Shown here piece after piece: positions 43,338 through 62,853 of a DNA stretch of 64,000 nt. The stretch lies in sequence record LC788710.1; one strand, written 5' to 3'. The notes below the pieces were generated by a model, which had not been told where the DNA came from, searched no databases, and saw only the letters and a program-made list of their open reading frames with translations. Origin of the DNA: Escherichia coli phage Wa28. The position numbers were made by a program, and so were the translations under genes. How positions within the stretch are numbered: the stretch's first letter is position 1; every line of letters starts with the position of its first letter.

Positions 43338-43366
43338 ATTATATAAGATTTCTGGACATTTAGCAA
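43338..43366 (-). promoter_or_regulatory. T5-type sigma70 promoter (TTGCTA-17-TATAAT)
   Basis: reverse complement reads TTGCTA, 17-bp spacer, TATAAT, with AT-rich upstream tract. Confidence 0.6.
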
Positions 43367-43371
43367 GTAAA

Positions 43372-43902
43372 TTATTTATTTAATTCTTCTAATGCTGGAA
43401 GCAACCCGCGAAAGACTTCCTTAACTGCTAGCTCTCCGTGAAGCTCTTCCCTTAGTATATTAGCTGCTTCAACAGCTAAATTTAGATCTTGGTATCTAAA
43501 GTAGCCACCATGTACTGGAGTACTTTCAGAATTTCTGGCTTGGACTCTCCATTGCTGGAGATCTTTCTTCCAGCTAACCCCTAGATATCCAGAATTAGAT
43601 TGTGCGACTTTATTACGATTATTTTCCTGAGATGTGGCATCCTTTAGATTACACCATCTGTTATCTTTTCTTATATTATTTAAGTGATGAACTAAACCTG
43701 GGATATAACCCTCCATATACAGGAAAGCTAATCTATGGGCTGCATATCTTTTTCTGTTTATCCCGATAAATATATAACCATCTTTATCGGGACTGCCAGC
43801 GATAGCTCCAGCTTTAGCTCTACCCTTACTGACTTTCCTTATAAAGTCTCCTGTATCGGGATTATATTCAAATAGTTCTTTTAGTAGTTCTTGTGTTATC
43901 AT
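43372..43902 (-). CDS. HNH homing endonuclease
   Basis: 176 aa; AHRLAF...VHHLNNIRKDNRWCNL HNH motif. Confidence 0.6.
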   Translation of the reverse strand: MITQELLKELFEYNPDTGDFIRKVSKGRAKAGAIAGSPDKDGYIFIGINRKRYAAHRLAFLYMEGYIPGLVHHLNNIRKDNRWCNLKDATSQENNRNKVAQSNSGYLGVSWKKDLQQWRVQARNSESTPVHGGYFRYQDLNLAVEAANILREELHGELAVKEVFRGLLPALEELNK

Positions 43903-44334
43903 TTACCAATCGTTAACGAAACCTGAGAACTCAGAAGCAAAGACTAACTCAAATTTCTCAGCAATTTCAGGATGATCTTTACAGATCAGTTCAATGCACT
44001 TCTCAGGTTCCATACCATCTTCTTCAGGATCACCGTAATACTTGTCCCAAAGATCATCAGGAATAACTTGCTCAGCTAGATCTTGGAAGTTCACTAACTG
44101 ATAGCGTGGAGTATCCTCATTAATAAAGATCTCATGCAATTCCTCAGATACTTCTCCCTTATAATCGGAAATTAGCAGAGCATTGCAAGCAAAACATTCC
44201 CACATCATCAAACGCTCAGAAATCGGGTTCGATTTGTCTTGAACATAGGACTGAAAGACTGCCTTAAAAGTAGCTTTAACTTGCTCAAACTTATCTGCTG
44301 TTGCGATTAAAAGTGCTTTATCAATCTTTTGCAT
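43903..44334 (-). CDS. hypothetical protein
   Basis: 143 aa; promoter and RBS directly upstream. Confidence 0.45.
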   Translation of the reverse strand: MQKIDKALLIATADKFEQVKATFKAVFQSYVQDKSNPISERLMMWECFACNALLISDYKGEVSEELHEIFINEDTPRYQLVNFQDLAEQVIPDDLWDKYYGDPEEDGMEPEKCIELICKDHPEIAEKFELVFASEFSGFVNDW

Positions 44335-44363
44335 TTTGATTCCTTCTCATCAATTTATAAAGT

Positions 44364-44392
44364 AATTATACAGAAAACTAAGCATTTTAGCA
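44364..44392 (-). promoter_or_regulatory. T5-type sigma70 promoter (TTGCTA-17-TATAAT)
   Basis: same conserved architecture, followed by ATAAATTGATGAG leader. Confidence 0.6.
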
Positions 44393-44495
44393 AATGAAGT
44401 TTTAAAATAAAAGGCCTAAGCCTAGGCCCGTAAAGAAAGAGATAAGAACTACTATCCCTATTGCTATAAATATCTCACGAGCCATGCCATCAAAA

Positions 44496-45086
44496 TCAAA
44501 CATTGATATCTCCCCTCAATACCGCTGCCACATCTTCATCGATTTGGAGTATTTCACCAGTAGTGCAGTTAACCACTTTATCATAGCTTGTGAACTTGCC
44601 AGACACAATATCCTCTAGAGGAATAGGAGTCTTGCTCATCTCAAAAGAGACGTTGATATAACGTGGGTCACGCACAGAATTGGTGTGCACATGTCCGTGA
44701 ATGTTTAGCTTACCACGAAGTTCTGCTTCGTGCAATGGACAATGTGACAGCCAAAACTTCTTGCCACCACCTGTTTGCTTACCTAGAGCCTGAATATCAT
44801 CATAAACGTCTACAAGATCTTTAATACGCAGACCCTGACGTTCAGCATCGTGGTTGCCCATGATTAATTGGTTAGGCACATTGTAGATAACCGACTTCAA
44901 TTTAGCCAACCCTTCACGCCCCACGGCAATATCTCCTAGCAATACAAGTTTTGTACGCTTGCCAATGTGCTTGGACAAAGTATCTAGGATATATTCATCG
45001 TGCTCTTTCCTGTTCTTAAACCACGGACGGAAGCGAAGAGTTCCAGGATGGTCTAGGTGCAAATCCGACCAGAATTTAACTTTCAT
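44496..45086 (-). CDS. calcineurin-like metallophosphoesterase
   Basis: 196 aa; DLHLDH, GDIAVGREG, GNHD motifs. Confidence 0.55.
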   Translation of the reverse strand: MKVKFWSDLHLDHPGTLRFRPWFKNRKEHDEYILDTLSKHIGKRTKLVLLGDIAVGREGLAKLKSVIYNVPNQLIMGNHDAERQGLRIKDLVDVYDDIQALGKQTGGGKKFWLSHCPLHEAELRGKLNIHGHVHTNSVRDPRYINVSFEMSKTPIPLEDIVSGKFTSYDKVVNCTTGEILQIDEDVAAVLRGDINV

Positions 45087-45292
45087 TACTTATTCCTTAC
45101 ACAAGTTGAGGTAATAGTATAACTATCGTAGAATATACCTTTTGTGAGTCCAATTTGGATGCTGGAATTATCCAGCTTACCTCCAGCTACGTCACACAAG
45201 TGTCTAGTATCTTCTGCGGTGAATCTCATACTATTATCATAAGGATCACATCCAGCTAGTATTAGTACTGATACTAGTAGTAATCTCTTCAT
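45086..45292 (-). CDS. putative lipoprotein
   Basis: 68 aa; signal peptide with lipobox LAGC. Confidence 0.4.
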   Translation of the reverse strand: MKRLLLVSVLILAGCDPYDNSMRFTAEDTRHLCDVAGGKLDNSSIQIGLTKGIFYDSYTITSTCVRNK

Positions 45293-45660
45293 TACAGAAC
45301 TTCCTCCGCATATTTATTCCAACCCTGACAATAACTACTAATACCACGAAGTTTGAATATTTCATCATAAACCTCATGGTGCTCTTTTGCTTCTTGATAT
45401 CCTTTGTCAAGTTCTTCTTGTCGTGCTTGCTCAAAATCAACACGATTCTCTAGCATTTTCCAGACTTTTTCATACTCTGGCCAGTCATGCTCTACCACAA
45501 CGGTTTTGAGATCCTCTTTTCCACGTTGTGCTCGACTATACCACAGTTTGGATAAGATATGTTCCAAAGTGGTAAAGTTGCTTTGAGTGATATGCCCTAA
45601 TTCTAGGGCTTTCTCAATATCAGACAACTTTATAACTACATAACGTTCTTCACGTTCCAT
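45292..45660 (-). CDS. hypothetical protein
   Basis: 122 aa ORF. Confidence 0.4.
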   Translation of the reverse strand: MEREERYVVIKLSDIEKALELGHITQSNFTTLEHILSKLWYSRAQRGKEDLKTVVVEHDWPEYEKVWKMLENRVDFEQARQEELDKGYQEAKEHHEVYDEIFKLRGISSYCQGWNKYAEEVL

Positions 45661-46523
45661 TATAGAATCCTCTGTACACCACAGCTATCATTTTTATCTG
45701 TGGTAAATGTCAAGATCTTACCAGCTTCATCATTAACTTGCGCAACCGTCAACTGCCCGTTGAAAACACCGCCAGTATCGAGATAAACACGGTTCTTGTA
45801 CAGAATTGGGTAAGGAACACCAGTGTGGCCATGGAATACGAAATCTACACTTTCAACTTCTGGCACTTCCACAGTCAGTTCATCTTTAAATCCTGCATAA
45901 CGCTGGAAATAGGGGTGCTCTGCACCTTGCTTAGACAGATGAAAACCAATTTCCTGAATTACATCACGATCCCATAGATATGGCTCAATGTAATAACTAG
46001 GATGATCATTAGGATCATTTTCACTTGCAGCGATATGATCAATAATATCATCCCAATTAGGTGTATGTACATCGAATCCCGCATCTTTATACTGGAATGG
46101 TATTCCACCATGAACAACACCATATTTCTTGCCACGATGGAGTACAGTCATGAATACTGGCATTTTAACTGCCATATCTTCTGCGATACCTTTAATTGTA
46201 TCGGTATCTAGATCATTCATTGCCCACATTCCACCATTATACATCCAGTTGGCGTAGTCACCAGCAATCATAAACTGATCATGGTTGCCACGAACGCTGC
46301 GGAAGCGTGGGTTATATAAGAATTTGGCTAGAACCTGTAAGTTCTGCGGGCCACGGTCAATTAAGTCGCCAACACAGACAACATAGTCACGCTTCTCTTT
46401 ATATCCTGCTAGTTTAAGAGCATCTTCCAGCATATCATTACAGCCGTGAATATCTCCTACGAAGAACAGGTTAACATCGTCTGGTACTACTAACATTTCA
46501 TGCAGGTTAAATTCTTTTTTCAT
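45660..46523 (-). CDS. Ser/Thr protein phosphatase (PPP family)
   Basis: 287 aa; GDIHG, GDLIDRG, GNHD motifs in canonical order. Confidence 0.7.
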   Translation of the reverse strand: MKKEFNLHEMLVVPDDVNLFFVGDIHGCNDMLEDALKLAGYKEKRDYVVCVGDLIDRGPQNLQVLAKFLYNPRFRSVRGNHDQFMIAGDYANWMYNGGMWAMNDLDTDTIKGIAEDMAVKMPVFMTVLHRGKKYGVVHGGIPFQYKDAGFDVHTPNWDDIIDHIAASENDPNDHPSYYIEPYLWDRDVIQEIGFHLSKQGAEHPYFQRYAGFKDELTVEVPEVESVDFVFHGHTGVPYPILYKNRVYLDTGGVFNGQLTVAQVNDEAGKILTFTTDKNDSCGVQRIL

Positions 46524-46554
46524 TATCTGGTTCCTTTCTCAAGTTTATAGGTAT

Positions 46555-46583
46555 ATTATATCAAAATTTTAAGCGTTTAGCAA
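46555..46583 (-). promoter_or_regulatory. T5-type sigma70 promoter (TTGCTA-17-TATAAT)
   Basis: conserved architecture upstream of the phosphatase gene. Confidence 0.6.
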
Positions 46584-46625
46584 ATAAAGAAAAACCCAGA
46601 TCAGCTAAGATCTGGGTTGGATTTA

Positions 46626-46916
46626 TTAATCTTCTGGATTATCTTCCAGGAAGTTTTTGATTGCATCGTGCATAGTTTCCTTACGAAGCTGACGACCAAT
46701 CAGAATGTGGTTGGCTTCCACACGACCATTCGGTAGACGATCTGCTAGAACTACTACAGGAACTTGTCTAACACCGAACTTCTGCATAAGTTCTGTATTA
46801 TCAGTCTCTTTATGAACTTCTAGACTGTAGCCCTGTACTACTTTATCGAATACAGGCTCGAAAAGTTTACATGGGTTGCAAGTGGAACCTTTTAATAGAT
46901 ATATTAATTTACTCAT
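46626..46916 (-). CDS. thioredoxin/glutaredoxin-like protein
   Basis: 96 aa; CNPC redox motif near N-terminus. Confidence 0.5.
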   Translation of the reverse strand: MSKLIYLLKGSTCNPCKLFEPVFDKVVQGYSLEVHKETDNTELMQKFGVRQVPVVVLADRLPNGRVEANHILIGRQLRKETMHDAIKNFLEDNPED

Positions 46917-47319
46917 GTTTATTAATGGCCTCCAAAAAGCCTTTCATTACCTTGACAGTTGCAGTGCTAAGATCTAAGGTAGCACCTAAGCACTCGGATA
47001 CAGCAGCTTGATAAGGGGCTTTTAGCCTGCCTTCCGGTACTTGTACTTTCTTATAGGTTTTCTTCTTGACTTTATCCAGCATCGTTTCAAGAACATTGAG
47101 AGGCAACTTCTGACCTTCAATATTCACGCCAAGCTCTTCCATTAGCATGGTATTTAAGTCAATACGAGTAAGTTTCTTGCCCTTGCTAGACATACGAATT
47201 CCCGCCTTTTTCTCAAGTTTTGCACGCTCTGGTGAATCGAGGTCACGTAATGCGATGTTCAATTCATACGGAGCCATATTGTAATGGTTAGCCATCTGAG
47301 TATAGTAACGATCTGACAT
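46909..47319 (-). CDS. hypothetical protein
   Basis: 136 aa; GAGGAG RBS. Confidence 0.4.
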   Translation of the reverse strand: MSDRYYTQMANHYNMAPYELNIALRDLDSPERAKLEKKAGIRMSSKGKKLTRIDLNTMLMEELGVNIEGQKLPLNVLETMLDKVKKKTYKKVQVPEGRLKAPYQAAVSECLGATLDLSTATVKVMKGFLEAINKHE

Positions 47320-47352
47320 TTGTGAAACTCCTCTGATTCAATTTATATAAAT

Positions 47353-47381
47353 ATTATATAAAAATTTCAGCGGAAAGTCAA
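47353..47381 (-). promoter_or_regulatory. T5-type sigma70 promoter (TTGACT-17-TATAAT)
   Basis: conserved architecture. Confidence 0.6.
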
Positions 47382-47394
47382 CTACTTTTTTATA

Positions 47395-47811
47395 TTAGTG
47401 TGCTTGATGTGGGAATCTCTTCCTAACTAAGTACATAGTTATTGGATATATTGAATACATAAGTATAGGGGAGAAAAGGGTGAAATAAGCCGTGACTCCC
47501 CCAGCTAACATTAGTGGTATCAATGCTAGAGTAAGGGCCATAAGAATCATACCGAATGAGACAGCCAGGGCTACTGTGATGCAGTTCTCTAACTCCATCC
47601 AAAGCCAACAATATTTCGTATTCCTCTGGCAGTTGCATTTGCAAACGCCGAATGTGCCCATAATTATATACTCTAGCCCATGAACGACTTTCTTTAATGT
47701 ATCATTTTGGGTAACTAGTGCGACAACAGTGAGAATTATCATTAAGATGAAAATTACTAGGCTTATTTTCCATATTCCTAGTAATATCATGGTGAATAGT
47801 TCTGCAAACAT
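47395..47811 (-). CDS. integral membrane protein
   Basis: 138 aa, multiple TM helices. Confidence 0.4.
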   Translation of the reverse strand: MFAELFTMILLGIWKISLVIFILMIILTVVALVTQNDTLKKVVHGLEYIIMGTFGVCKCNCQRNTKYCWLWMELENCITVALAVSFGMILMALTLALIPLMLAGGVTAYFTLFSPILMYSIYPITMYLVRKRFPHQAH

Positions 47812-47886
47812 GGCTTTCTCCTATCATTAAGTTTTTAAAGCCCCCTTTGCTTTAAAAGGCGGGAATTACCCCGCCTTGATTTATTA

Positions 47887-48300
47887 TCAGACTAATTCTA
47901 CGTGACCACCGTCGTAAGTACCACGATCGATCTCATCATGATAATCACCAGAACTATTCCAGTCGGCACCAAAACGAAGTTTGACACCAAGTTCCTTACC
48001 GGCTTGTTCAAAAGCCTTCTTAACAGCCCAAAATGCTTCCAGATCTTTCCAATCAATCTTTCCATTAATATATGGTGCAAAATCGATAGCGTCTCCAGTT
48101 ACATGCTTACTCTTGCTAGGGTCTTTCAAAAATGAAGTACCATTAGCAATGTTTTGGGCACTTTGTGCTACTGTACGAATACCCTGTACGATTGTGAAAT
48201 CATATGGAGATAATTCTAAAGCCCTACGAGCTACCTTTTGTAGCTCGGGCTTAACAGTTGCTAATTGTTTTTCGCTATTTTTACCAAATTTAAAACTCAT
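47887..48300 (-). CDS. lys: endolysin, L-alanyl-D-glutamate peptidase (M15-like)
   Basis: 137 aa; H...D...H metal-binding pattern (SKHVTGDAIDF ... DGGHVEL); adjacent to holin-like gene. Confidence 0.7.
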   Translation of the reverse strand: MSFKFGKNSEKQLATVKPELQKVARRALELSPYDFTIVQGIRTVAQSAQNIANGTSFLKDPSKSKHVTGDAIDFAPYINGKIDWKDLEAFWAVKKAFEQAGKELGVKLRFGADWNSSGDYHDEIDRGTYDGGHVELV

Positions 48301-48953
48301 ATAGATCTACCTAATGATCTCCGTTGTGGGGAACAGAGCTTTGCTAAGTACTCATTAAATTGTTCCGAATCAGCTGTATCTACGGGTTTATCCTTCCATG
48401 CAATACCTATGTATCCAGCATAGATATTATTTAGGTTGAAATATGGACAAGTGTAGACGTAATTAAAAGTAATGTTCTTAAATGCTGGTATATTTGACCC
48501 TGTATATTTATTTACTTTTACACTTAAATCCGCAGCGTAGTTAAAGCCTTCCAGGTGACGTCTATAAAGTTCAGACGTCTTATTTACTGCTTTATCGGCC
48601 AAGTCAGCCCTATCCAATTGCGCATTGCTTTCCCATGCAATAATGTTTGAATAATCATTTATAGCATCTGGTTTATACTTTACTACAAAAACGGCATCCG
48701 CACCAGTCTGGGAGAAAAGAACCATACTCTTTTCTCGTGCTACATTAGGAAAGTTATCTATCCTTTGGGTTTGAACATCCTGTAAAACCGAAGACGTGGA
48801 GAAAGTCTTTAAAAATGACATCACCTCGCTAGTGTTACTTACAAACAAGAAAATAATGACAGCAACTAAGATAGTTAGCAGACGTTTTAGTAGTGAAGCT
48901 GGATCTTTCGCTTCTTGTAGCAGTATCGTTAATAGTTGTATAAACTTTTCCAC
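48297..48953 (-). CDS. putative holin
   Basis: 218 aa; N-terminal TM helix; immediately upstream of and overlapping endolysin start. Confidence 0.5.
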   Translation of the reverse strand: MEKFIQLLTILLQEAKDPASLLKRLLTILVAVIIFLFVSNTSEVMSFLKTFSTSSVLQDVQTQRIDNFPNVAREKSMVLFSQTGADAVFVVKYKPDAINDYSNIIAWESNAQLDRADLADKAVNKTSELYRRHLEGFNYAADLSVKVNKYTGSNIPAFKNITFNYVYTCPYFNLNNIYAGYIGIAWKDKPVDTADSEQFNEYLAKLCSPQRRSLGRSI

Positions 48954-49063
48954 TTGTAACCTCCTCTAACCACTACCATTATACTAATTCTAGAGTAAAA
49001 TTACAATGTGTTTTTTAAGATCACTTCTGGAGCACAATTTTTTGTCGTTGTCAAGAAGAATTT

Positions 49064-49099
49064 TAGGCAAAAGAAAAGCCAGAGTCGTTAAACTCTGGC
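49064..49099 (-). terminator. rho-independent (bidirectional) terminator
   Basis: 9-bp stem AGCCAGAGT/ACTCTGGCT flanked by A/T runs on both sides. Confidence 0.6.
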
Positions 49100-49109
49100 T
49101 TAAAACTAC

Positions 49110-49709
49110 TTACACTTCTCCATGTTCTTCTGGATGCGGGGCTTGAGCTTTACTACACTGCTCTTTACGATAATTCGCCAAAATTTCAATACGCTTATTG
49201 ATTTCTTTGCTGTTGAGATAGATATTCTTATTCTCTTTTACCATGTCCTCGATTTCGTCGACAGAGAAGAACGGAAAGTAAATATCTAGCATCATATCTT
49301 CTACAAACTGGTTGTAGGATTCATATGCTTTCTTGATTTCTTGACCTTTCTCGCAGAATCCGCCAGAGAACGTATGTCCCATAAGCGTAGCATGTGGATG
49401 TACAACCCAACCGTGGCAAGATAGGAAGATTGTGCAGTAAGCAGAAGCACTAGGACCGAGTAGGTGTCCAATAACAGTTCCACGACAGTTAGCGATTAGG
49501 TTAGATAGTTGTGCAGCAGTATCAACGTAACCACCCGGCCCATTAATCATCAGATTAATTTCATCATCTTCACCAGCCTGCATCAGTATCATGGATAGGT
49601 CACGATACTCATCCGGTGAGCCTAATTCTTCATCAAAGAAAAAGGTATATTCGTTAGATTGGCGAACAGTGTGAAACAGGTTAGTCTTTTCTTCTTTCTT
49701 GTTAGTCAT
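49110..49709 (-). CDS. ClpP-like serine protease
   Basis: 199 aa; INGPGGYV and catalytic-region-like segments. Confidence 0.5.
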   Translation of the reverse strand: MTNKKEEKTNLFHTVRQSNEYTFFFDEELGSPDEYRDLSMILMQAGEDDEINLMINGPGGYVDTAAQLSNLIANCRGTVIGHLLGPSASAYCTIFLSCHGWVVHPHATLMGHTFSGGFCEKGQEIKKAYESYNQFVEDMMLDIYFPFFSVDEIEDMVKENKNIYLNSKEINKRIEILANYRKEQCSKAQAPHPEEHGEV

Positions 49710-49721
49710 AGTGATCCTTAA

Positions 49722-50474
49722 TTATCCAACTAGTGGTTCTAGCTCTAAGTCACAGAAGTGGTACACATCGGTACGAAGTGCATCAAGTCCGTTGAAGGTA
49801 TTCTCAAATTTATGAGAAATATATTTTTCAGGAATACCGCTTTCAGACGGATGATCTGTCTCGATGCGATACTTATTAGTAATACCAGATTCAACCTTAA
49901 TAAGCATGGAATCCATATCTAGAGTATTGGTTTCCATGATTAGTTCTCCCTCATTGGGGAAACGCACATCGGTAACGATTGCGACGTCTGGGTCGTCTTT
50001 ATCGATGGATTGCTCCAGAATTATGAGCCAAATGCGTTCATGCACCAGCTGCCTTCCTAACTCAGTACCTACAAGCTGTAGCATTTTTCTTGGGGAGATA
50101 AATACGCTATACAGCGCATCATCAGCTTGCCCAATTAACTGCTGAGGATCAAGGTATTTTCCTTCAAATATCGGCCAAACGTACGAGAAGTCCTCAAACT
50201 TATCGATACCATACTTAAACCATACGTCTCTAGCTCGCTCCAATTGAGATTGTGTGACTGTAAACCATTGGTCAATCTCTTTTCCCCTGCGCTCTCCCAG
50301 AAACTCTGGAGTTACCCCGAGGATTACGGATGCAAGTTCGTAAACGGGTTTAGCAAAACTGTAACGACGGGATAAACACGTTGGGAACGTGTCATTACAC
50401 CAGTCAATCATTAATTCTGCAACGGTATCTTTTCCCGCACCAGCCTCACCATGTAAACCGACTAATACTGACAT
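49722..50474 (-). CDS. dnk: deoxynucleoside monophosphate kinase
   Basis: 250 aa; P-loop GEAGAGKDT at N-terminus. Confidence 0.6.
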   Translation of the reverse strand: MSVLVGLHGEAGAGKDTVAELMIDWCNDTFPTCLSRRYSFAKPVYELASVILGVTPEFLGERRGKEIDQWFTVTQSQLERARDVWFKYGIDKFEDFSYVWPIFEGKYLDPQQLIGQADDALYSVFISPRKMLQLVGTELGRQLVHERIWLIILEQSIDKDDPDVAIVTDVRFPNEGELIMETNTLDMDSMLIKVESGITNKYRIETDHPSESGIPEKYISHKFENTFNGLDALRTDVYHFCDLELEPLVG

Positions 50475-51862: not shown

Positions 51863-51893
51863 AAATTATCCTTTTGCCTCAATCTATAAACAT

Positions 51894-53986: not shown

Positions 53987-54016
53987 TTCAAAGCCCTCTC
54001 ATCAATTTATATAAAT

Positions 54017-54045: not shown

Positions 54046-54062
54046 ATGAATTATTTACGAAA

Positions 54063-55066: not shown

Positions 55067-55147
55067 ACATTTCTCCTAAAACTTGGGAGATAAATGGAGT
55101 TTGCTCGACTACCTTGCGTAGTTGGTAGAAATCGTACCCAAACCCCA

Positions 55148-55881: not shown

Positions 55882-55957
55882 TGGTAGTTAGTAGTGGATT
55901 TGAACCACTGTAGTCGCTCCGTATGAAGGAGGTGCATAACCACTCTGCCAACTAACT
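55882..55957 (-). tRNA. tRNA-Met/Ile2 (anticodon CAT)
   Basis: hand-folded cloverleaf; T-loop TTCAAAT; anticodon loop TTCATAC; CCA encoded. Confidence 0.6.
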
Positions 55958-55963
55958 ATAATT

Positions 55964-56039
55964 TGGTACTCCGACTTGGGATCGAACCAAGATTTGACGA
56001 TTATCGGTCGCCTGTTCTAACCGTTTGAACTATCGGAGC
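55964..56039 (-). tRNA. tRNA-Ile (anticodon GAT)
   Basis: cloverleaf; anticodon loop CCGATAA (C at position 33). Confidence 0.55.
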
Positions 56040-56040
56040 A

Positions 56041-56334
56041 TTACATCATTTCGTCTAAGTAAGAAGTATACTGGTATTTAGCTTCTCCAGTTTTATCTAC
56101 TTCGACTTCTGTTCTAGGTACTTTTCGTACCAGACCGTGAATCATCTTGTACTGAATAGACTTAGATGGTTCGTGATCTTTTGGAAATACTTGTTTAACC
56201 GTTACTACTTTGAAGCCTTCACGAGGTGTTAGCACAACAACTTGATCACCTTCTTTTATTTTCCAAGACTCAGGAAATTCGTAAGTGTAGCGTTGACCAC
56301 CCGTTTGGAACACGACAGAAAGATAACGTTTCAT
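56041..56334 (-). CDS. hypothetical protein
   Basis: 97 aa; promoter upstream. Confidence 0.4.
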   Translation of the reverse strand: MKRYLSVVFQTGGQRYTYEFPESWKIKEGDQVVVLTPREGFKVVTVKQVFPKDHEPSKSIQYKMIHGLVRKVPRTEVEVDKTGEAKYQYTSYLDEMM

Positions 56335-56363
56335 TTGGTTTCCCTCTCATTAATTTATGTAAA

Positions 56364-56392
56364 TATTATAACAAGAAATAAGAGAGAAGGCA
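56364..56392 (-). promoter_or_regulatory. T5-type sigma70 promoter (TTGCCT-17-TATAAT)
   Basis: conserved architecture. Confidence 0.55.
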
Positions 56393-56408
56393 AATGAATT
56401 TTTAAATT

Positions 56409-56483
56409 TGGTGCTCCCACCAGGAATCGAACCCGGTTCAGATGCTTACAAGGCAACTGCATCGCCAGCAATGCTTTAGGAGC
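56409..56483 (-). tRNA. tRNA-Thr (anticodon TGT)
   Basis: cloverleaf; anticodon loop CTTGTAA. Confidence 0.6.
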
Positions 56484-56650
56484 AATAAACCCGTTATTTC
56501 AACGGAATTTCTTTTTCAAATACAGGAGACTTATCAGACATTACTGTCATAGCCAACTGCTGTAGAAATTCGAATGAGAGTTTTAAACGTTCTTCACCCA
56601 ACTCAACCTCAACACACTTCATTTGCTTATCAACCTTTAGCTTTAGATTA

Positions 56651-56872
56651 TCAGCCCTCTTCGGGTTCTCTTTGCTCAGCTATTGCTAGCCAGTCTGGTA
56701 AAAGAAACTTAGTACGAAATTCTTCATATGTTTCTTCTGGATGAAAGCTATAGCCTTGCTTTTCATCATTTAATAAAACCGAACCGTCTTCCTGTTCATA
56801 AGCTCGGTATGTTTCACCAATAATTAAAACTCGTCTATTGGGGTTTTTATTACGAAACTCAAAAACGTCCAT
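56651..56872 (-). CDS. hypothetical protein
   Basis: 73 aa. Confidence 0.35.
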   Translation of the reverse strand: MDVFEFRNKNPNRRVLIIGETYRAYEQEDGSVLLNDEKQGYSFHPEETYEEFRTKFLLPDWLAIAEQREPEEG

Positions 56873-56887
56873 AACGTTTCCTTAAGT

Positions 56888-56962
56888 TGGTGCGGGATAC
56901 GAGAGTCGAACTCGTGTCTACTGGTTGGAAGCCAGTTATTCTAGCCACTGAACTAATCACGC
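56888..56962 (-). tRNA. tRNA-Gly (anticodon TCC)
   Basis: cloverleaf; anticodon loop CTTCCAA. Confidence 0.55.
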
Positions 56963-56968
56963 ATAAAT

Positions 56969-57044
56969 TGGCTGGAGAAGGAGGAATCGAACCTACCATT
57001 AACGGAGTCAAAGGCCGTTGTGCTAACCGTTACACTACTCTCCA
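56969..57044 (-). tRNA. tRNA-Gln (anticodon TTG)
   Basis: cloverleaf; anticodon loop CTTTGAC. Confidence 0.55.
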
Positions 57045-57050
57045 AGTATT

Positions 57051-57126
57051 TGGCTGGGATGCCACGGATCGAACGTGGAACCTTCGGAGTCAGAGGCCGA
57101 CGATCTGCCAATTGATCTACATCCCA
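57051..57126 (-). tRNA. tRNA-Gln (anticodon CTG)
   Basis: cloverleaf with perfect acceptor stem; anticodon loop CTCTGAC. Confidence 0.6.
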
Positions 57127-57133
57127 ATAATTT

Positions 57134-57334
57134 TTATTCTACAGGAACCGTGGCAATTGGATCTGGTTCTTCTAGACGTTTACCATTATGGTCAACACGA
57201 ATAATACCACAACCTTCACAGATTACAACAGCACCATAGCCTTCTTTAACTTCGGCTTCTGTAATCAGACCAGAAAGATCACCAGTATCTTTGCCCCACA
57301 TATCGATAGAGCATTCTTTGCAGAAATCAGCCAT
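57134..57334 (-). CDS. zinc-ribbon protein
   Basis: 66 aa; CKEC...CEGC. Confidence 0.35.
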   Translation of the reverse strand: MADFCKECSIDMWGKDTGDLSGLITEAEVKEGYGAVVICEGCGIIRVDHNGKRLEEPDPIATVPVE

Positions 57335-57358
57335 ATTTTAGTTCCTGTATAAGTTAAT

Positions 57359-57433
57359 TGGTGCATCCTCAGGGAATCGAACCCCGATCGTAAAGTTCGT
57401 AGCTTTACATTCTTTCCGTTGAAATAAGGACGC
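57359..57433 (-). tRNA. tRNA-Arg (anticodon ACG)
   Basis: cloverleaf; anticodon loop CTACGAA. Confidence 0.55.
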
Positions 57434-57438
57434 ATATT

Positions 57439-57515
57439 TGGGGTGGCTAGTGGAATTCGAATCCACATAGGCCTGATTCACAATCAGGATCATTAACCAA
57501 TTATGATATAGCCAC
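57439..57515 (-). tRNA. tRNA-His (anticodon GTG)
   Basis: cloverleaf; anticodon loop TTGTGAA; perfect acceptor. Confidence 0.65.
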
Positions 57516-57896
57516 AATTGAATACTATTAGGGGATGATCAGTCCTCCATTTGGCCGTCTAAGGTACCAAAGTTAGTCATTCTGCGCACAGGTTTTTCTC
57601 CTGATTCTTTATTGCGAATGCTCTCTAATAATACTCAATTGTGGCGGCTCTCCGAAACTCTTCTACTCTAGCCTTAGCAGCTTACTCCCGAACGCATGTC
57701 GGGAAAGTCTTACTAAGAACATCAAATAGCACCGTTACACTTTGAGCCATTAATGTATCAAGAAGCAGAAGGACTTGAACCTTCACGAGATAGACCATTT
57801 ATCTCAGCCTCGTTTTCGGGTATCTTATGAGGAGTGGATGTTCCCCTTACGCCCTTTAGGAAGCCCCGTCTACCGATTCCGGCATACTTCAAGATT

Positions 57897-57986
57897 TGGC
57901 AGAAGATAATGGAGTCGAACCATCACCGTATCACTACAGCGGGCCGGTTTTCAAGACCGGTTACGTACCACTACGTCCTATCTTCT
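57897..57986 (-). tRNA. tRNA-Ser (anticodon TGA), class II
   Basis: 90 nt; anticodon arm CCGGT-CTTGAAA-ACCGG; long variable arm. Confidence 0.6.
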
Positions 57987-58213
57987 AGTATTTGTTCTAC
58001 TTCTTTTCGAAGATCTTCTGGATTATCATGATAGGTTGTTTGCCATACATAAATAACTCCAGTATCACATGCTTTATCAAATATTTCTCGCTCAGGAAGT
58101 TTCATGCCCATTGCGTACTTGATATGAAACTCTAAAGCTTGCTTACTAGGGAATGTATGACGCAAGAAAAACTTATCATTAACTAAATCCAACATCATAA
58201 TCTTGACTTTCAT
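57971..58213 (-). CDS. hypothetical protein
   Basis: 80 aa; 3-prime end overlaps tRNA-Ser. Confidence 0.35.
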   Translation of the reverse strand: MKVKIMMLDLVNDKFFLRHTFPSKQALEFHIKYAMGMKLPEREIFDKACDTGVIYVWQTTYHDNPEDLRKEVEQILEDRT

Positions 58214-58233
58214 TTATATTCCCTATTAGTTGT

Positions 58234-58326
58234 TTGGCGGAAGAAGAGAGATTCGAACTCTCAAGCCTGCTTTAACAAGTCAGCCACTTTCCAAGCGGTT
58301 TTCGTCACCTAATCGATTTGCTCTTC
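58234..58326 (-). tRNA. tRNA-Ser (anticodon GGA), class II
   Basis: 93 nt; T-arm GAGAG-TTCGAAT-CTCTC; anticodon loop TTGGAAA; fold less certain. Confidence 0.45.
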
Positions 58327-58501
58327 CGTAGATCTCAGGATTAAATCATAAACTTCATTAGCAGATACTGGAAGTATGAGATTATACATCTTTTGGTCAT
58401 ACCTCTGACCATACTCTATAAACACATACTCTTTAGTTAATGTATTAACAGCTAACCAGATATCAGTTATAGGAGTTTTCATCATGAGTTAATCCAATGT
58501 T

Positions 58502-58582
58502 TGGTAGGGATGGAGGGACTCGAACCCACACCCGAAGACTAGAACCTAAATCTAGCGCGTCTGCCAATTTCGCCACATCCCC
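58502..58582 (-). tRNA. tRNA-Leu (anticodon TAG), class II
   Basis: 81 nt; anticodon arm CTAGA-TTTAGGT-TCTAG. Confidence 0.55.
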
Positions 58583-58589
58583 ATTTTAT

Positions 58590-58808
58590 TTAGTTAGAAA
58601 TAAATAGTAACCCTGCAACAATGGAACCTATGCCACTGAATACCATTATCAGCATAGCTTCTAAGCTGATAAAGCGGACGTTATATGGAGCGCCCCAAGA
58701 ATAATCAGTAAAGAAAGTTTTCTTTTCTTTAGCTAAATCTTTAATAGTTCTAAAATAGATAGCTAGTGCTAAAGCTACAAGAACTACAGAGGCTGCTAAG
58801 AATACCAT
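58590..58808 (-). CDS. small membrane protein
   Basis: 72 aa, two TM helices. Confidence 0.35.
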   Translation of the reverse strand: MVFLAASVVLVALALAIYFRTIKDLAKEKKTFFTDYSWGAPYNVRFISLEAMLIMVFSGIGSIVAGLLFISN

Positions 58809-58827
58809 ATTATTTCCTTAATTTGTT

Positions 58828-58903
58828 TGGTGGAGTCACTCAGAATTGAACTGAGTTCCACTGCTTGCAAGGCAGTAAGTTTAACCAAATAACCTATGAC
58901 CCC
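58828..58903 (-). tRNA. tRNA-Ala (anticodon TGC)
   Basis: cloverleaf; G3:U70 wobble; anticodon loop CTTGCAA. Confidence 0.65.
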
Positions 58904-58908
58904 GAATT

Positions 58909-58987
58909 TGGTGGAGAATAAGAGATTCGAACTCTTCTGATATCCTCGGTGCAAGCGAGGTGTCCACTCCAAGCAGACCCATTCCCC
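58909..58987 (-). tRNA. tRNA-Ala-like (anticodon TGC), atypical
   Basis: 79 nt; G3:U70; anticodon loop CTTGCAC; G8G9 and 7-nt variable loop are non-canonical. Confidence 0.45.
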
Positions 58988-58996
58988 AAAATCTTT

Positions 58997-59225
58997 AAGT
59001 TTACTAAGGCTATTAGCTCGGTGTGCGTATTACCCTCAGACATTAGCCAGTAGAGGATAACCGCTCTTCACAAACCCGATACACTATTCAGTTGCCGCTG
59101 AATCTAGTGGACTAATCTAGAACTTATTGCAAAGTATCCCCCGCCATTAAGGGTCTACTTGCAATTGTGCTTTTTGGCAGCCAGTCCTAGGTCGAGCTAA
59201 TACCTTAGTGAACTTTGATGAGGAT
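58997..59225 (-). ncRNA. candidate structured RNA (~230 nt) closed by a ~24-bp terminal helix
   Basis: 58997-59022 pairs with 59200-59225 (2 mismatches); no ORF; promoter at 59250-59278 fires into it; leader hairpin GATGAGGA-gaaa-TCCTCATC. Confidence 0.35.
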
Positions 59226-59249
59226 TTCTCCTCATCAATTTATATAAAT

Positions 59250-59278
59250 ATTATAACAAGAAATTAAGCATCAAGCAA
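59250..59278 (-). promoter_or_regulatory. T5-type sigma70 promoter (TTGCTT-17-TATAAT) driving structured RNA and downstream tRNAs
   Basis: conserved architecture; -35 overlaps stop of upstream ORF. Confidence 0.6.
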
Positions 59279-59630
59279 GTACATTTTTAGCGATTTCTTG
59301 TATTTCCTTAACGTCACTAACGAAAAGGTAATCAGAGCTTCCAGAGTGCATACTCTGCATAACCACACCATCCTCTGGTGCATCTTCTTTCAAAGTAATA
59401 CCTAACCAGAACTCGGCAAAACTAGGTGTTACCTCACCTTGACTTGCCTTGAATACATCGGCTTCTGTGATCTCCTGACCAGTAGAGAGTCCCATGTACG
59501 GTACGTTCAGATCAATATCTTTGTAAAACTCAGCTAGATCTTGTTCGAAGTCCCAACCTTTAGAGATAGCGAACTCCATTGTTACATGACCGAAATAGCC
59601 TTGAACCTTGCTTGATAATTGCATTTGCAA
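59271..59630 (-). CDS. hypothetical acidic protein
   Basis: 119 aa. Confidence 0.4.
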   Translation of the reverse strand: MQMQLSSKVQGYFGHVTMEFAISKGWDFEQDLAEFYKDIDLNVPYMGLSTGQEITEADVFKASQGEVTPSFAEFWLGITLKEDAPEDGVVMQSMHSGSSDYLFVSDVKEIQEIAKNVLA

Positions 59631-59648
59631 TTCCTTATTTTGAGTTAA

Positions 59649-59722
59649 TTGGTACTCGGTGATAGAATCGAACTATCGCAACCGCCGTGTAAAGACGGGG
59701 TTCTCCCATTAAACTAACCGAG
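59649..59722 (-). tRNA. tRNA-Val (anticodon TAC)
   Basis: cloverleaf; anticodon loop TTTACAC. Confidence 0.55.
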
Positions 59723-59726
59723 CAAT

Positions 59727-59804
59727 TTGGTGGATTGCCTGGGATTCGAACCCAGAACTGACGGATTAAAGGTCCGCTACTCTTATCCGGTTGAGCTAGC
59801 AATC
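59727..59804 (-). tRNA. tRNA-Lys (anticodon TTT), C33 variant
   Basis: cloverleaf with perfect acceptor; anticodon loop CCTTTAA. Confidence 0.5.
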
Positions 59805-60269
59805 CAATTTTTCTACTAATAATTTAAAAGCATCTAGTACAGGTACTTCAAACCATTCCCCGGATACTCTGTAGTCTTTGAGAAGATTATGTAACTCTTT
59901 CTCCGTACGTCTTTTATCTGACGAAAATCTGAAATGGTGTAGCTTGTAGTCTCTATTAGGTGAATAGGTTTGATAACTTGCTAACCTCTCATTTACATCT
60001 ATAGTCATACCTATTTTATACATGCCTGGCCATGCGGGATTACCGATTACATATACAAAACCTTCCGTTATAGGTATTTTATGTTCTCTTTTGTATTTTA
60101 AGAGATTTAAAGCTGCCATTCGATAACAGAATTTAAATTCTGAAGTTTTTAACTTACCCTCTTTACCAGAAATTTCATTATATTTGCTCATATAAGCTCT
60201 TATAAGCTTATCATCTATAATAAAATTATCAGGAAGGTTTAAGGCAGCTAAAACTTTATTAATTAGCAT
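59796..60269 (-). CDS. T5orf172-domain (GIY-YIG-like) putative homing endonuclease
   Basis: 157 aa; VYVIGNPAWPGMYKIGMT...YQTYSP motif; paralog of 63369-63860. Confidence 0.55.
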   Translation of the reverse strand: MLINKVLAALNLPDNFIIDDKLIRAYMSKYNEISGKEGKLKTSEFKFCYRMAALNLLKYKREHKIPITEGFVYVIGNPAWPGMYKIGMTIDVNERLASYQTYSPNRDYKLHHFRFSSDKRRTEKELHNLLKDYRVSGEWFEVPVLDAFKLLVEKLDC

Positions 60270-60444
60270 AAACTTCCTTAATAGAGTAGACTTTCAAGTA
60301 AGGATGATTAATACCAAATTCCGCCATTACTTCATTTTCATCTTTACCATAATGGGCTAGTGGATACTTCTTACGATCTTTACTAGAACGTAAATCACTT
60401 ACTTTTAAACGAAATAATTTCATTTCGAAATCCTTCTATTAAAT

Positions 60445-60522
60445 TGGAAGCGGGTGCAGGAATCGAACCTACCTCTTTCTAGCTTATGAGACTAGCGATC
60501 TCTACCAGAGATCTAACCCGCA
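60445..60522 (-). tRNA. tRNA with CAT anticodon (Met/fMet/Ile2), 1:72 mismatch
   Basis: cloverleaf; anticodon loop CTCATAA; unpaired first acceptor pair. Confidence 0.5.
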
Positions 60523-60528
60523 ATTGTT

Positions 60529-60606
60529 TGGTCTCCGTGGGAGGATTTGAACCCCCGACCCTATCGCCCCAAACGAAACGCTCTAGCCAAACTGAGCTAC
60601 ACGGAG
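60529..60606 (-). tRNA. tRNA-Pro (anticodon TGG)
   Basis: cloverleaf; perfect acceptor; anticodon loop TTTGGGG (G37). Confidence 0.6.
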
Positions 60607-60638
60607 AATATTCTTTGTTAACTCACTTTATAAAATAT

Positions 60639-60667
60639 ATTATACAGAGAATTAAGCTAAATAGCAA
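60639..60667 (-). promoter_or_regulatory. T5-type sigma70 promoter (TTGCTA-17-TATAAT) upstream of tRNA-Pro
   Basis: conserved architecture. Confidence 0.6.
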
Positions 60668-60921
60668 CTACATTTTTTAATAAATTTACTTATTGCGTAG
60701 GCCACCTGGAGGGTTCAAGCCCCACGGCTGACAAAGAAGTTTGCGAGACTTCTCTTAAACGCCAGAATAGACCCGCCGATCTATCGGAACCTACTCAATA
60801 AGTAAACTTTCGTTTACCTACACCTACCTGGTCGGGAGGATTTTCAGCGACTAGAACCGGCCGGAAACTCATCGCCTTGTTTATCTAGGAGTCCGTTCTC
60901 TAGGAAGCAGAAACCTAAATT

Positions 60922-60995
60922 TGGTGCGGTCGGAGGGAATCGAACCCTCAACTTCTGGTTGGCAACCAAAAATTATACCTTTTAACTACGAACGC
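60922..60995 (-). tRNA. tRNA-Gly (anticodon GCC)
   Basis: cloverleaf; anticodon loop TTGCCAA. Confidence 0.55.
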
Positions 60996-61005
60996 ATAAT
61001 AAGTC

Positions 61006-61126
61006 AATCTAGGCAGGACTTGAACCTGCTATCACTTGTGCGGATTTACGAGAACCATTCTTTCACTCGAATCGAACGAGCTTCTACCCTCGGCAAGCTG
61101 GTGTCCCCTCTCCACCACGCTAGAAT
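61006..61126 (-). other. tRNA-like element (~121 nt) with perfect T-arm but no standard cloverleaf
   Basis: T-arm GCAGG-TTCAAGT-CCTGC at 61013-61029; acceptor-like pairing only to 61120-61126. Confidence 0.25.
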
Positions 61127-61208
61127 GATAATTAGTGCCTGCTCCTTTGAATCAAGAAGTCCACCCCGGACTTTGGGTCTTTGCAGTACATCACGCTGCT
61201 CTGATGTT

Positions 61209-61285
61209 TGGTACACCCACTAGGACTTGAACCTAGAACCTACCGCTTAAGAGGCGGTAGCTCTAACCAATTGAGCTATGGATGT
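61209..61285 (-). tRNA. tRNA-Lys (anticodon CTT)
   Basis: cloverleaf; D-arm GCTCAATTGGTTAGAGC; anticodon arm ACCGC-CTCTTAA-GCGGT. Confidence 0.65.
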
Positions 61286-61291
61286 ATAATT

Positions 61292-61366
61292 TGGCGGTAC
61301 TAAGGGTAATCGAAACCCTACCTCTCCCGTGACAGGGGAGTATCCTAACCGTTAGACTATAGTACC
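61292..61366 (-). tRNA. tRNA-Asp (anticodon GTC)
   Basis: cloverleaf; anticodon arm CTCCC-CTGTCAC-GGGAG; perfect acceptor. Confidence 0.65.
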
Positions 61367-61938
61367 TTTAACTTTTTAAGTTCTTTAGGATTGCCTCCTA
61401 AAGAAGTGTATCTTTTACGCAACCCATTATCTGAATAACTTAACTTTCTCCCTGCACCTGACCAGCCTAGCTCTCTTACTGTAACCTCGATTATTTCTTT
61501 AGTTATAGAGATATCTTTTGGTTTATGTGAAGAGCACTCCTGACATTTTTCAGCTTTTAAAGAAATAGCTTTACCACAATCCTTACAACAATTATCATGG
61601 TTTAGTTTACTAAATCCTTTATCTTTTAAAGTCTTTTCTAGATGCTGCTCTTTTGTGAGCACTTGTAAGTTATTAAGACCCCAATAAGTAATGTCTGTGT
61701 TAATATGGTCAACTTCTAGTTCAGAGTCTAGACTTGGTAATTTCTTAAATGCACATGCTAAAATCCTATGTACACCGGTATTTCTCTGTTGACCATTTTT
61801 ATGGAGACGTATAGATAAGTATCCGTAATTACTGGTTATTTGGGTTAGTATTTTGTTTGATTTGATACTAAATACTAACCCATCCAAACTTACTAAGTAC
61901 TCCTCAAACCCTGGAATGGGTAAGGATATTCCGTGCAT
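61357..61938 (-). CDS. HNH homing endonuclease
   Basis: 193 aa; GVHRILA...EVDHIN...NNLQVLTKEQH HNH motif plus C-terminal Cys cluster. Confidence 0.6.
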   Translation of the reverse strand: MHGISLPIPGFEEYLVSLDGLVFSIKSNKILTQITSNYGYLSIRLHKNGQQRNTGVHRILACAFKKLPSLDSELEVDHINTDITYWGLNNLQVLTKEQHLEKTLKDKGFSKLNHDNCCKDCGKAISLKAEKCQECSSHKPKDISITKEIIEVTVRELGWSGAGRKLSYSDNGLRKRYTSLGGNPKELKKLKVL

Positions 61939-61941
61939 AAT

Positions 61942-62127
61942 TTACTCAGTTTTGAGTTTTTCGATAGCTTCCTCAACCTCTTTTAGAGCTTCACGACGCT
62001 CTACTTGACCTTGAAGTTCTTCAAGAAGTTCAGCTTTCAGAGCCTTAATAATATTACCACGAACCTTAATATTATTAATCAGATTATCACGATCAGCTTC
62101 TAGTCGAGCAATTGCACGAGTTGTCAT
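61942..62127 (-). CDS. small coiled-coil protein
   Basis: 61 aa. Confidence 0.3.
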   Translation of the reverse strand: MTTRAIARLEADRDNLINNIKVRGNIIKALKAELLEELQGQVERREALKEVEEAIEKLKTE

Positions 62128-62230
62128 ATCTATTTCCTCAGTTGTTAATGAAAAATGGTATCTGTGACTGAATTCGATATCAGCAATGATAGCTGGTTGG
62201 CTACCGGTTTACTTAACTCTACACAGAATA

Positions 62231-62313
62231 TGGCGGGCCGTGTAGGATTCGAACCTACGTTGTCTTTCGACATGGATTAACAGTCCACCGCCAAACCGCT
62301 TGGCTAACGACCC
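62231..62313 (-). tRNA. tRNA-Asn (anticodon GTT) with unusually long 13-nt variable arm
   Basis: 83 nt; anticodon arm GGACTGTTAATCC; extra arm GTC-gaaa-GAC. Confidence 0.55.
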
Positions 62314-62320
62314 TAAAATT

Positions 62321-62396
62321 TGGACGACCGCATGAGATTCGAACTCACATAAGGAGGTTTTGCAGGCCTCCGCCTAAGCCATTCAGCCAACGGTCG
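62321..62396 (-). tRNA. tRNA-Cys (anticodon GCA)
   Basis: cloverleaf; anticodon loop CTGCAAA. Confidence 0.6.
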
Positions 62397-62574
62397 ATTT
62401 ATCTTGCTTTTCGAGATTAGTAAACTCTAGATCTTTAGAATGTCCTATAGATCTAGCATAATAGCCATCTCCAGCATCGTAGCCTGATTTACCGCACTCA
62501 CACATCTTAAACTCTCTATAATGAGTGAAAATATGTTCAGAACCACAACACTTAAATTTAACTAACATTTTCAT
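62383..62574 (-). CDS. small zinc-ribbon protein
   Basis: 63 aa; CCGSEH...CECGKS. Confidence 0.3.
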   Translation of the reverse strand: MKMLVKFKCCGSEHIFTHYREFKMCECGKSGYDAGDGYYARSIGHSKDLEFTNLEKQDKSTVG

Positions 62575-62813
62575 TTAACACGCTCCGGTAAATCTTCGAG
62601 TTTATATTGAGTAGCCACATTAGCAGCATCTAGTAACAAACCCATATGTTTAAGAATCCTAGTGATAGCCTCGCCTTCTGCTTCTTCTACAAAAGTGCGT
62701 AGTTGAATGAAGTCAATACCCCCATCCATACCAGAGAAAATGTTTAGTAAGCGAAGCATTACCAGCTTACGTTCTTTCAATTCTTGTTCTGTCATGTTGC
62801 TTCTCCAGTTCAA
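62571..62813 (-). CDS. hypothetical protein
   Basis: 80 aa; promoter upstream. Confidence 0.35.
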   Translation of the reverse strand: MNWRSNMTEQELKERKLVMLRLLNIFSGMDGGIDFIQLRTFVEEAEGEAITRILKHMGLLLDAANVATQYKLEDLPERVK

Positions 62814-62824
62814 TTTATGTAATA

Positions 62825-62853
62825 ATTATACAGAACTTTAAGCGGTTAAGCAA
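62825..62853 (-). promoter_or_regulatory. T5-type sigma70 promoter (TTGCTT-17-TATAAT)
   Basis: conserved architecture. Confidence 0.6.

Follow-up and report, generated by a model that had tools for sequence, protein, structure and literature searches.

Results

Ten promoter copies in the early region

We analyzed a 64,000-nt stretch of DNA from Escherichia coli phage Wa28 (record LC788710.1; the whole stretch is called the window below) for a family of promoters that is repeated on its minus strand between positions 43338 and 62853. Over bases 43000-63000, the identity to E. coli phage Shin27 (Demerecviridae, Epseptimavirus) is 99.6%; this segment also matches hundreds of T5-like phages from Salmonella and Escherichia, and in 177 records a single match spans 80% or more of the query. 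Judged by these matches, the window belongs to a T5-like phage of Epseptimavirus. The span 43338-62853 is the left portion of the early region, where small early genes are followed by genes for a phosphatase, lysis proteins, a Clp-like protease and a deoxynucleoside monophosphate kinase, and then by a cluster of 25 tRNAs (55882-63965). The Shin27 record lists zero promoters, and the majority of its genes are named "hypothetical". Comparisons by script were made with two genomes, T5 (AY587007) and phage Ace.

All ten minus-strand copies pair one-to-one with a T5 feature annotated as "promoter" (AY543070) or as "putative early promoter" T5P8-T5P18 (AY587007); some of these promoters are flagged in AY587007 as members of a repeat family, and the designations P-F30, P11, P13b, P13a and P14b are historical names found in AY543070 at the orthologous positions. 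The putative +1 of each copy was placed, by homology with the T5 promoter N25, at the A of ATAAATT, 7 nt past the -10 box. Copy 1 (43306-43381) runs from TTGCTA to TATAAT at 43366-43338, with the putative +1 at 43331 and the leader ATAAATTAATGAGAGAGG, ahead of the ATG (43305) of an 83-amino acid (aa) open reading frame (ORF); its orthologue is T5 16245-16319 in AY543070, that is, T5P8 in AY587007. Copy 2 (44335-44408; boxes 44393-44365; putative +1 at 44358) precedes a 143-aa ORF with ATG at 44334, has a terminator hairpin (44429-44412) immediately on its 5' side, and corresponds to P-F30/T5P9. Copy 3 (46524-46598; boxes 46583-46555; putative +1 at 46548) adjoins a terminator (46618-46593) on its -35 side and precedes the gene for a 287-aa Ser/Thr phosphatase (ATG 46523); the T5 orthologue is 18550-18624/T5P10. 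Copy 4 (47320-47396; boxes 47381-47353 with TTGACT as the -35 box; putative +1 at 47346) serves a 136-aa ORF (ATG 47319) and is orthologous to T5 19368-19442/T5P11. Copy 5 (51863-51937; boxes 51922-51894 with TTGCTC; putative +1 at 51887) lies ahead of a 232-aa ORF (ATG 51862); a terminator-like hairpin with a T-run is seen immediately 5' of it, and its T5 orthologue, 24443-24517/T5P13, likewise overlaps an annotated terminator.

Farther along, copy 6 (53987-54060; boxes 54045-54017; putative +1 at 54010) has the leader ATAAATTGATGAGAGGG and a 93-aa ORF (ATG 53986), and is orthologous to T5 26722-26796/T5P14. Copy 7 (56335-56408; boxes 56393-56365 with TTGCCT; putative +1 at 56358) precedes a 97-aa ORF (ATG 56334); its upstream A-block adjoins the 3' end of tRNA-Thr (56409-56483), and the orthologue is P11/T5P16. 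Copy 8 (59216-59293; boxes 59278-59250; putative +1 at 59243), the orthologue of P13b, has the leader ATAAATTGATGAGGAG with no ORF following. Copy 9 (60607-60682; boxes 60667-60639; putative +1 near 60631-60632), the orthologue of P13a/T5P17, has the leader (T)ATAAAGTGAGTTAAC, which contains no Shine-Dalgarno sequence. Copy 10 (62796-62868; boxes 62853-62825; putative +1 at 62818) precedes a 74-aa ORF (ATG 62795) and corresponds to P14b/T5P18. Every copy is oriented toward its downstream gene, and the gene-driving copies lie at a fixed distance 5' of the start codon. T5 annotates overlaps of terminators and promoters at places that match the terminator-abutting copies in the window.

Excess over shuffled sequence

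The frequencies of the motif in the window were compared with those in shuffled sequences. The pattern TTG-N20-TATAAT has 16 matches in the 64-kb window compared to 1.35 expected (the highest shuffle had 7), and 11 of the 16 lie on the minus strand within 43338-62853, the coordinates given by a first-pass annotation of this DNA. The extended pattern TTG-N20-TATAAT-N6-ATAAA, allowing at most one mismatch, was found 12 times versus 0.16 expected. With no pattern supplied, a repeat finder ranked the promoter sites first in size among the repeat families of the 64 kb (D1, D4 and D5), and a weight matrix built from the ten copies assigned 62 bits to a plus-strand copy at 25568 that was not in the training set, while shuffled sequence never scored above -17. 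The repeated motif reported by the first-pass annotation is thus real, and ten full copies lie where it had placed them.

Less specific searches are not informative in this respect. A loose generic sigma-70 scan yielded 54 sites versus 52.5 in shuffles and cannot single out the promoter family; it skips the TTGCTT copies because the scoring is against TTGACA. Searching the window for a degenerate -10 element (TANNNT-N6-ATAAAYT, at most one mismatch) gave 30 matches versus 27 expected, and all the convincing ones have a perfect TATAAT; therefore, the window contains no further members of the family.

Blocks of the promoter

The ten copies have in common an A-rich block near -43, a 17-bp spacer, TATAAT, a 6-nt A/T discriminator, an ATAAATT block and a purine-rich, Shine-Dalgarno-like run. 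The spacer of exactly 17 bp and the -10 box TATAAT, both predicted earlier, are found in 10/10 copies. The -35 box, which had been described as TTGCTW or TTGACT, fits this description in eight copies (TTGCTW in 7/10, TTGACT in one) and reads TTGCTC and TTGCCT in the others; its TTG is invariant (10/10). The predicted AT-rich upstream tract is seen as the A-rich block upstream of the -35 box, with the alignment consensus TTTAAAAATTTAnTTGCT around -43; where a terminator abuts the promoter (copies with -10 boxes at 44365, 46555 and 51894), the block is partly substituted by the terminator T-run. ATAAATT or a one-mismatch variant of it follows TATAAT after 6 nt in nine of the ten copies and after 7 nt in copy 60639 (copy 9), and the conserved AT-rich +1 block, tested as TAAATT or ATAAATTTGAGAG, is present in the family copies. 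The discriminator is exactly ATATT in 3/10 copies; the others (ATTTAT, ATTTAC, TACTTT, ATACCT, ATGTTT and TATTAC) are all A/T-rich, but ATATT as such does not hold throughout the family.

Among the paralogues within the window, identity is 100% at the -10 box, 80% at the -35 box and 74% at +1 to +9, compared to 42-56% elsewhere; thus, the term "near-identical" used in the first-pass annotation is too strong. The same applies to the leader, for which the sequence ATAAATTGATGAG had been proposed: it is exact in three copies and has one mismatch in two more, and what the copies do have in common is the transcribed core ATAAATTGA (+1 to +9), followed by the purine-rich Shine-Dalgarno sequence. An ATG is found in the leader at +9 (AUAAAUUGAUGAG) at minus-strand positions 43323, 44350, 54002 and 56350; in copy 1 this ATG is in frame with the true start, and a mechanical ORF call therefore places the beginning of the gene at 43323 rather than 43305.

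Conservation in T5 and in other phages

An alignment of 35 sequences matches each window copy with its T5 counterpart and yields the joint consensus TTTAAAAATTTAnTTGCT...TTTTTGTATAATATnTTTATAAATTnAnGAGA. Compared with T5, the ten window copies are 100% identical to their orthologues in the -10 box, 92% in the -35 box and 92% at +1 to +9, compared to 74% in the spacer, 78% in the discriminator and 78% at +10 to +21. The value for +1 to +9 equals that of the -35 box and, therefore, the start-site block is a third selected element. The window copies and the T5 early promoters are alike in the -35 box, the 17-bp spacer, TATAAT, the ATAAATT start block and the downstream genes and RNAs, whereas the spacers and discriminators have diverged (74-78% identity). 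In addition, T5 has ORFs after the leader at the sites matching 46555 and 60639 that are missing in the window, and it has additional genes for HNH endonucleases in this region. The earlier assignment of the copies to a sigma-70 family with the classic architecture of T5 early promoters is borne out, given that the window is T5-like and that each copy is the orthologue of an annotated T5 promoter.

The pattern extends beyond close relatives. Only 1% of a 20-kb query aligns at the DNA level with Klebsiella phage Sugarland, which belongs to another genus; nevertheless, the early region of Sugarland has 12 minus-strand copies of TTG-N20-TATAAT-N6-ATAAA compared to 0.02 expected. The genome paper on phage AKFV33 lists 32 promoters with TTGCTw, a distance of 17-18 bp, TATAATA, AAAAATT near -43 and TAAATT at +1 (PMC3326045), a consensus that is the same as that of the window family. 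The two sets differ in scope: the AKFV33 promoters were collected over the whole genome, by inspection and with all classes pooled, whereas here 64 kb were scanned and the family was split from the other sigma-70 promoters.

Leaders of the protein-coding copies

In the eight protein-coding copies, GAGG, AGGA or GGAG occurs at approximately +14 to +20, and the start codon follows at +24 to +28; the leader thus supplies the ribosome-binding site, as had been predicted. It had also been proposed that the conserved leader forms a stabilizing hairpin at the 5' end. Positions +1 to +45 of each copy were folded, with dinucleotide shuffles as controls. The protein-coding leaders have folding energies between -0.5 and -5.6 kcal/mol and z-scores between -0.9 and +1.6, and no shared 5' stem-loop of the ompA type was found among the family leaders when compared to the shuffled controls; the stabilizing hairpin is thus not supported as a feature of the family. 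The lack of structure suits a translation start region. A strong hairpin is present in the leader of copy 59250 (copy 8) only (-14.7 kcal/mol, z -4.4): a stem of 9 bp (10 bp with the basal T-A pair) and a GAAA loop, spanning +7 to +28 and formed with an extra downstream complement that is unique to this copy; the T5 counterpart has one mismatch. The low folding energy at copy 60639 is that of tRNA-Pro sequence inside the folded stretch.

Copies that drive RNA

Two copies drive RNA rather than protein, in agreement with the earlier prediction. Copy 59250 is followed by a structured non-coding RNA of 256 nt (58988-59243, minus strand) that aligns with the T5 stable RNA "RNA2H", and then by two tRNA-Ala genes (58909-58987 and 58828-58903, minus strand). 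The RNA2H-like RNA has a minimum free energy of -93.8 kcal/mol (z -6.5), with a long closing stem and, relative to T5, a 22-nt insertion in an internal arm; an Rfam search of 55500-64000 returned tRNAs and sub-threshold noise only, and no family for this RNA. The tRNA-Ala(UGC)-like gene at 58909-58987 scores 38 bits compared to 60 for the neighboring tRNA-Ala; one tRNA-Ala gene is annotated here in T5 and two in phage Ace.

Copy 60639 leads to tRNA-Pro (60529-60606) and tRNA-Met (60445-60522), both on the minus strand and directly after its leader, with tRNA-Pro beginning about 25 nt past +1. In T5 and in phage Ace, a small ORF lies between the P13a-type leader and tRNA-Pro; in the window, this ORF is absent, and so is the Shine-Dalgarno (GAGG) part of the leader, whereas ATAAAGTGA is kept. 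Both untranslated copies thus retain +1 to +9, as ATAAATTGA in 59250 and as ATAAAGTGA in 60639. Retention of this block where nothing is translated points to a role at the level of transcription. Taken together, the two copies argue that +1 to +9 acts in transcription, with the Shine-Dalgarno part as a module for translation that can be separated from it.

Other promoters and the gp026 homologue

An eleventh full member of the family lies outside the span, on the plus strand (25553-25625; boxes 25568-25596; putative +1 at 25603), at the far end of the late region and just ahead of the first-step-transfer (pre-early) region. It drives a gene for an 88-aa lipoprotein (25626-25892, plus strand) whose product begins with MKKLLAIVVAAVVLTGC and is named in relatives as a receptor-blocking protein, llp or Cor superinfection exclusion protein; the Shin27 record lists this gene merely as hypothetical. 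The gene and a 593-aa ORF (23761-25542) point away from each other; from its position, we take this ORF to encode the receptor-binding protein. T5 Llp is expressed early, and a putative early-type promoter within the late region fits this timing.

Five sigma-70-like promoters in the window (8802, 27842, 37552, 39829 and 48978) are without the start-site block. The one at 48978 (48954-49028, minus strand), which accounts for the eleventh minus-strand match within the span, has TTGTAA, 17 bp and TATAAT at 48978-49006, followed by GGTAGTGGTTAGAGGAGG with no ATAAATT block; it lies ahead of the holin and endolysin genes and is orthologous to T5 20998-21071/T5P12. A partial copy of the family, TATAAT-ATACTT-ATAAATTAAAGAG, is found at 31990-32050 (plus strand) in a non-coding stretch of about 1 kb in the first-step-transfer region; it has TAGCCA in place of a -35 box and no ORF nearby, and T5 keeps the element (TATAATAACTGCATAAATT) at 6050-6100, where it is not annotated as a promoter.

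The window also encodes a homologue of T5 gp026 (41040-41507, minus strand; 90% identity to T5.026 over 153 aa). In T5, gp026 is an RNA-polymerase-binding protein that is reported to weaken the contacts of the polymerase with the discriminator region and its binding to the -5/+2 segment; early transcripts increase in a gp026 mutant, and the effect in vitro is small, two-fold or less (PMC7472727). According to Klimuk et al., the early and late promoters of T5 differ chiefly in the discriminator, with the early consensus ATATT (PMC7472727).

Junctions and neighboring repeats

Homology with T5 and Ace breaks at or within the promoter/leader repeats at 46526-46553, 60616-60624, 43385, 53981, 59300 and 62772. 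Directly upstream of copy 1 there is a 176-aa ORF (43372-43902, minus strand) that is annotated as a homing endonuclease in phage S124 and is absent at this site in T5 and Ace; a 193-aa ORF (61357-61938, minus strand) that overlaps tRNA-Asp is annotated in relatives as an HNH endonuclease.

Several other repeats were noted in the window. On the plus strand, the non-coding segment 31826-32200 contains several copies of the DnaA-box-like TTATCCAC(A) and of TTAGCAGACT; copies of TTATCCACA are also present in the T5 counterpart (6110-6215). Four direct repeats of about 40 nt (36322-36472, plus strand) are located close to where the first-step-transfer region ends; an injection stop signal is annotated at the corresponding place in T5. 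A 33-nt repeat has two exact copies (33491-33523 and 33816-33848, plus strand), each ahead of a small plus-strand ORF, and repeats with a 21-nt period (2167-2530; repeat finder families D3, D7 and D12) occur inside a large late-region ORF on the minus strand.

Discussion

Taken together, the ten copies are very probably early-class promoters of a T5-like phage (Epseptimavirus) that are read by the host RNA polymerase with sigma-70; we put the probability of this reading at roughly 0.93. The T5 early-promoter family has been described since the 1980s; it is an already known family that was found anew here in a Shin27-like phage. For the polymerase contacts, the start site, the strength and the timing, the reading draws on the literature on T5 and its family, and the adjective "strong" in the first-pass annotation is to be read in the same way.

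Each copy would start a short early operon, often straight after the terminator of the preceding one. From what is known of the family, the A-rich block at about -43 would be an UP element for the C-terminal domains of the alpha subunits, and the combination of TTGCTW, an AT-rich spacer of exactly 17 bp and a perfect TATAAT would result in very fast polymerase binding. The AT-rich initial transcribed sequence ATAAATTGA would then speed promoter escape. In eight copies, the short unstructured leader would also carry the Shine-Dalgarno sequence ahead of the start codon, and in the other two the transcript would be a stable RNA together with a tRNA precursor.

The T5 promoter PN25, a model for strong promoters, is used in pQE-type expression vectors and in studies of promoter escape. 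The N25 sequence is 100% identical to T5 AY543070 63048-63117, an annotated promoter that is in the early region and outside the counterpart of the window. Like the window copies, N25 has TTGCTT, a 17-bp spacer, TATAAT, an upstream A-block and a start at the A of ATAAATTTGAGAGAGGAG; its first 11 transcribed nucleotides comprise 9 A/T and 2 G/C, and ATAAATTGATG of the window has the same composition. The discriminators differ: N25 has AGATTC, with a G at -5, whereas those of the window (ATATTT, ATTTAT, etc.) are all- or nearly all-A/T. The published description of N25 comprises a near-consensus core (-35 box TTGctt, TATAAT and, between them, a 17-bp AT-rich spacer), together with an UP element and a native initial transcribed sequence that is AT-rich; replacement of the latter results in approximately 10-fold less productive RNA through slower promoter escape (PMC12464699). 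Its -12/+2 oligonucleotide, TATAATAGATTCAT, fixes the start site (PMC7472727).

Several points weigh against this interpretation. Start sites, strength and early timing in phage Wa28 come by homology, and a literature search for a genome-wide start-site map of a T5-like phage gave nothing relevant. The window discriminators do not have the G at -5 of N25 and, therefore, the kinetics may differ from those of N25. Moreover, the +1 to +9 segment could also act on the mRNA, e.g., as an A/U-rich translation enhancer, and the sequence alone cannot tell such a role from an effect on promoter escape.

The last point can be extended to an alternative explanation, namely that the mRNA is the main level at which the conserved transcribed block acts, as an unstructured A/U-rich translation-initiation region that combines S1 binding with the Shine-Dalgarno sequence. 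The fixed geometry of the gene-driving copies (Shine-Dalgarno sequence, about +14 to +20; start codon, +24 to +28) is consistent with this possibility, as are the unstructured leaders and the loss of the GAGG part together with the ORF in copy 60639. However, conservation of the transcribed part among orthologues is highest at +1 to +9 (92%), above that of the Shine-Dalgarno region (+10 to +21; 78%), and ATAAATTGA persists in copy 59250, whose product is a non-coding RNA, and for the most part also in the tRNA-driving copy 60639. Furthermore, a change of +3 to +20 in N25 lowers RNA approximately 10-fold in purified transcription assays (PMC12464699). We consider a predominant action on the mRNA to be a tentative alternative at best.

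Another explanation is that the A/T discriminator together with ATAAATT, which form the partly palindromic ATTTATATAAAT, is a timing element that is read by gp026 or by another phage DNA-binding protein and mediates the shut-off of early promoters at the onset of late transcription. The difference between T5 early and late promoters, which lies mainly in the discriminator, the weakening of -5/+2 binding by gp026 and the rise of early transcripts in the gp026 mutant are all in line with such an element (PMC7472727); so are the presence in the window of a gp026 that is 90% identical to that of T5 and the absence of the block from the five non-family promoters (8802, 27842, 37552, 39829 and 48978). 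Conversely, the in vitro effect of gp026 is two-fold or less (PMC7472727), the exact ATATT discriminator occurs in only 3/10 copies, and AT-rich palindromes easily arise in sequence of this kind. Binding of the block by a phage protein is hypothetical, and we regard the explanation as unlikely.

The promoter repeats might also be recombination junctions for the gain and loss of gene cassettes. The promoter-stem-loop repeats (PeSLs) of T4-like phages, which this explanation resembles, are repeated early-promoter segments that border variable gene cassettes. Compared to Ace, four of seven indel or replacement junctions have an end in the promoter zone, and junction ends fall in 5/10 promoter-bearing intergenic regions versus 1/19 others; at 46555 and 60639, genomes differ by an entire small ORF that fits precisely into the interval from the leader to the following gene. 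The comparison to T5, in contrast, shows no enrichment when intergenic position is controlled (5/10 versus 9/19). It should be noted that the comparisons are two in number (Ace and T5), and that the homing endonuclease genes in the region are an alternative cause of the mosaicism. Unlike the situation with PeSLs, the evidence of recombination is weak and mixed here, and there is no stem-loop common to the copies; an additional role of the repeats as junctions thus appears improbable. A combination of the last two explanations, in which the start-site block (the A/T discriminator plus ATAAATTGA) is an early-class timing tag for gp026 or another factor that could double as a cassette-exchange junction, seems equally improbable to us. 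Finally, the possibility that the matches are non-functional chance products of AT-rich intergenic DNA, for which the loose sigma-70 scan with its 54 versus 52.5 sites could be cited, is negligible and was refuted by the approximately 12-fold to 75-fold excess of the specific patterns over shuffles, by the orientation of all copies toward a downstream gene and the fixed start-codon distance of the gene-driving ones, by the block-wise conservation in T5, and by the copies in the distant phage Sugarland.

With the copies read as T5-type early promoters, little is added to what is known of the family, and the practical use of the results is a better annotation of the Shin27 record. The RNA-driving copies, however, split the leader into two parts, +1 to +9, which is kept without translation, and the Shine-Dalgarno sequence, which is lost along with the ORF. 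The class-specific features of the promoters would be a reasonable place to look for how T5 switches from early to late transcription.

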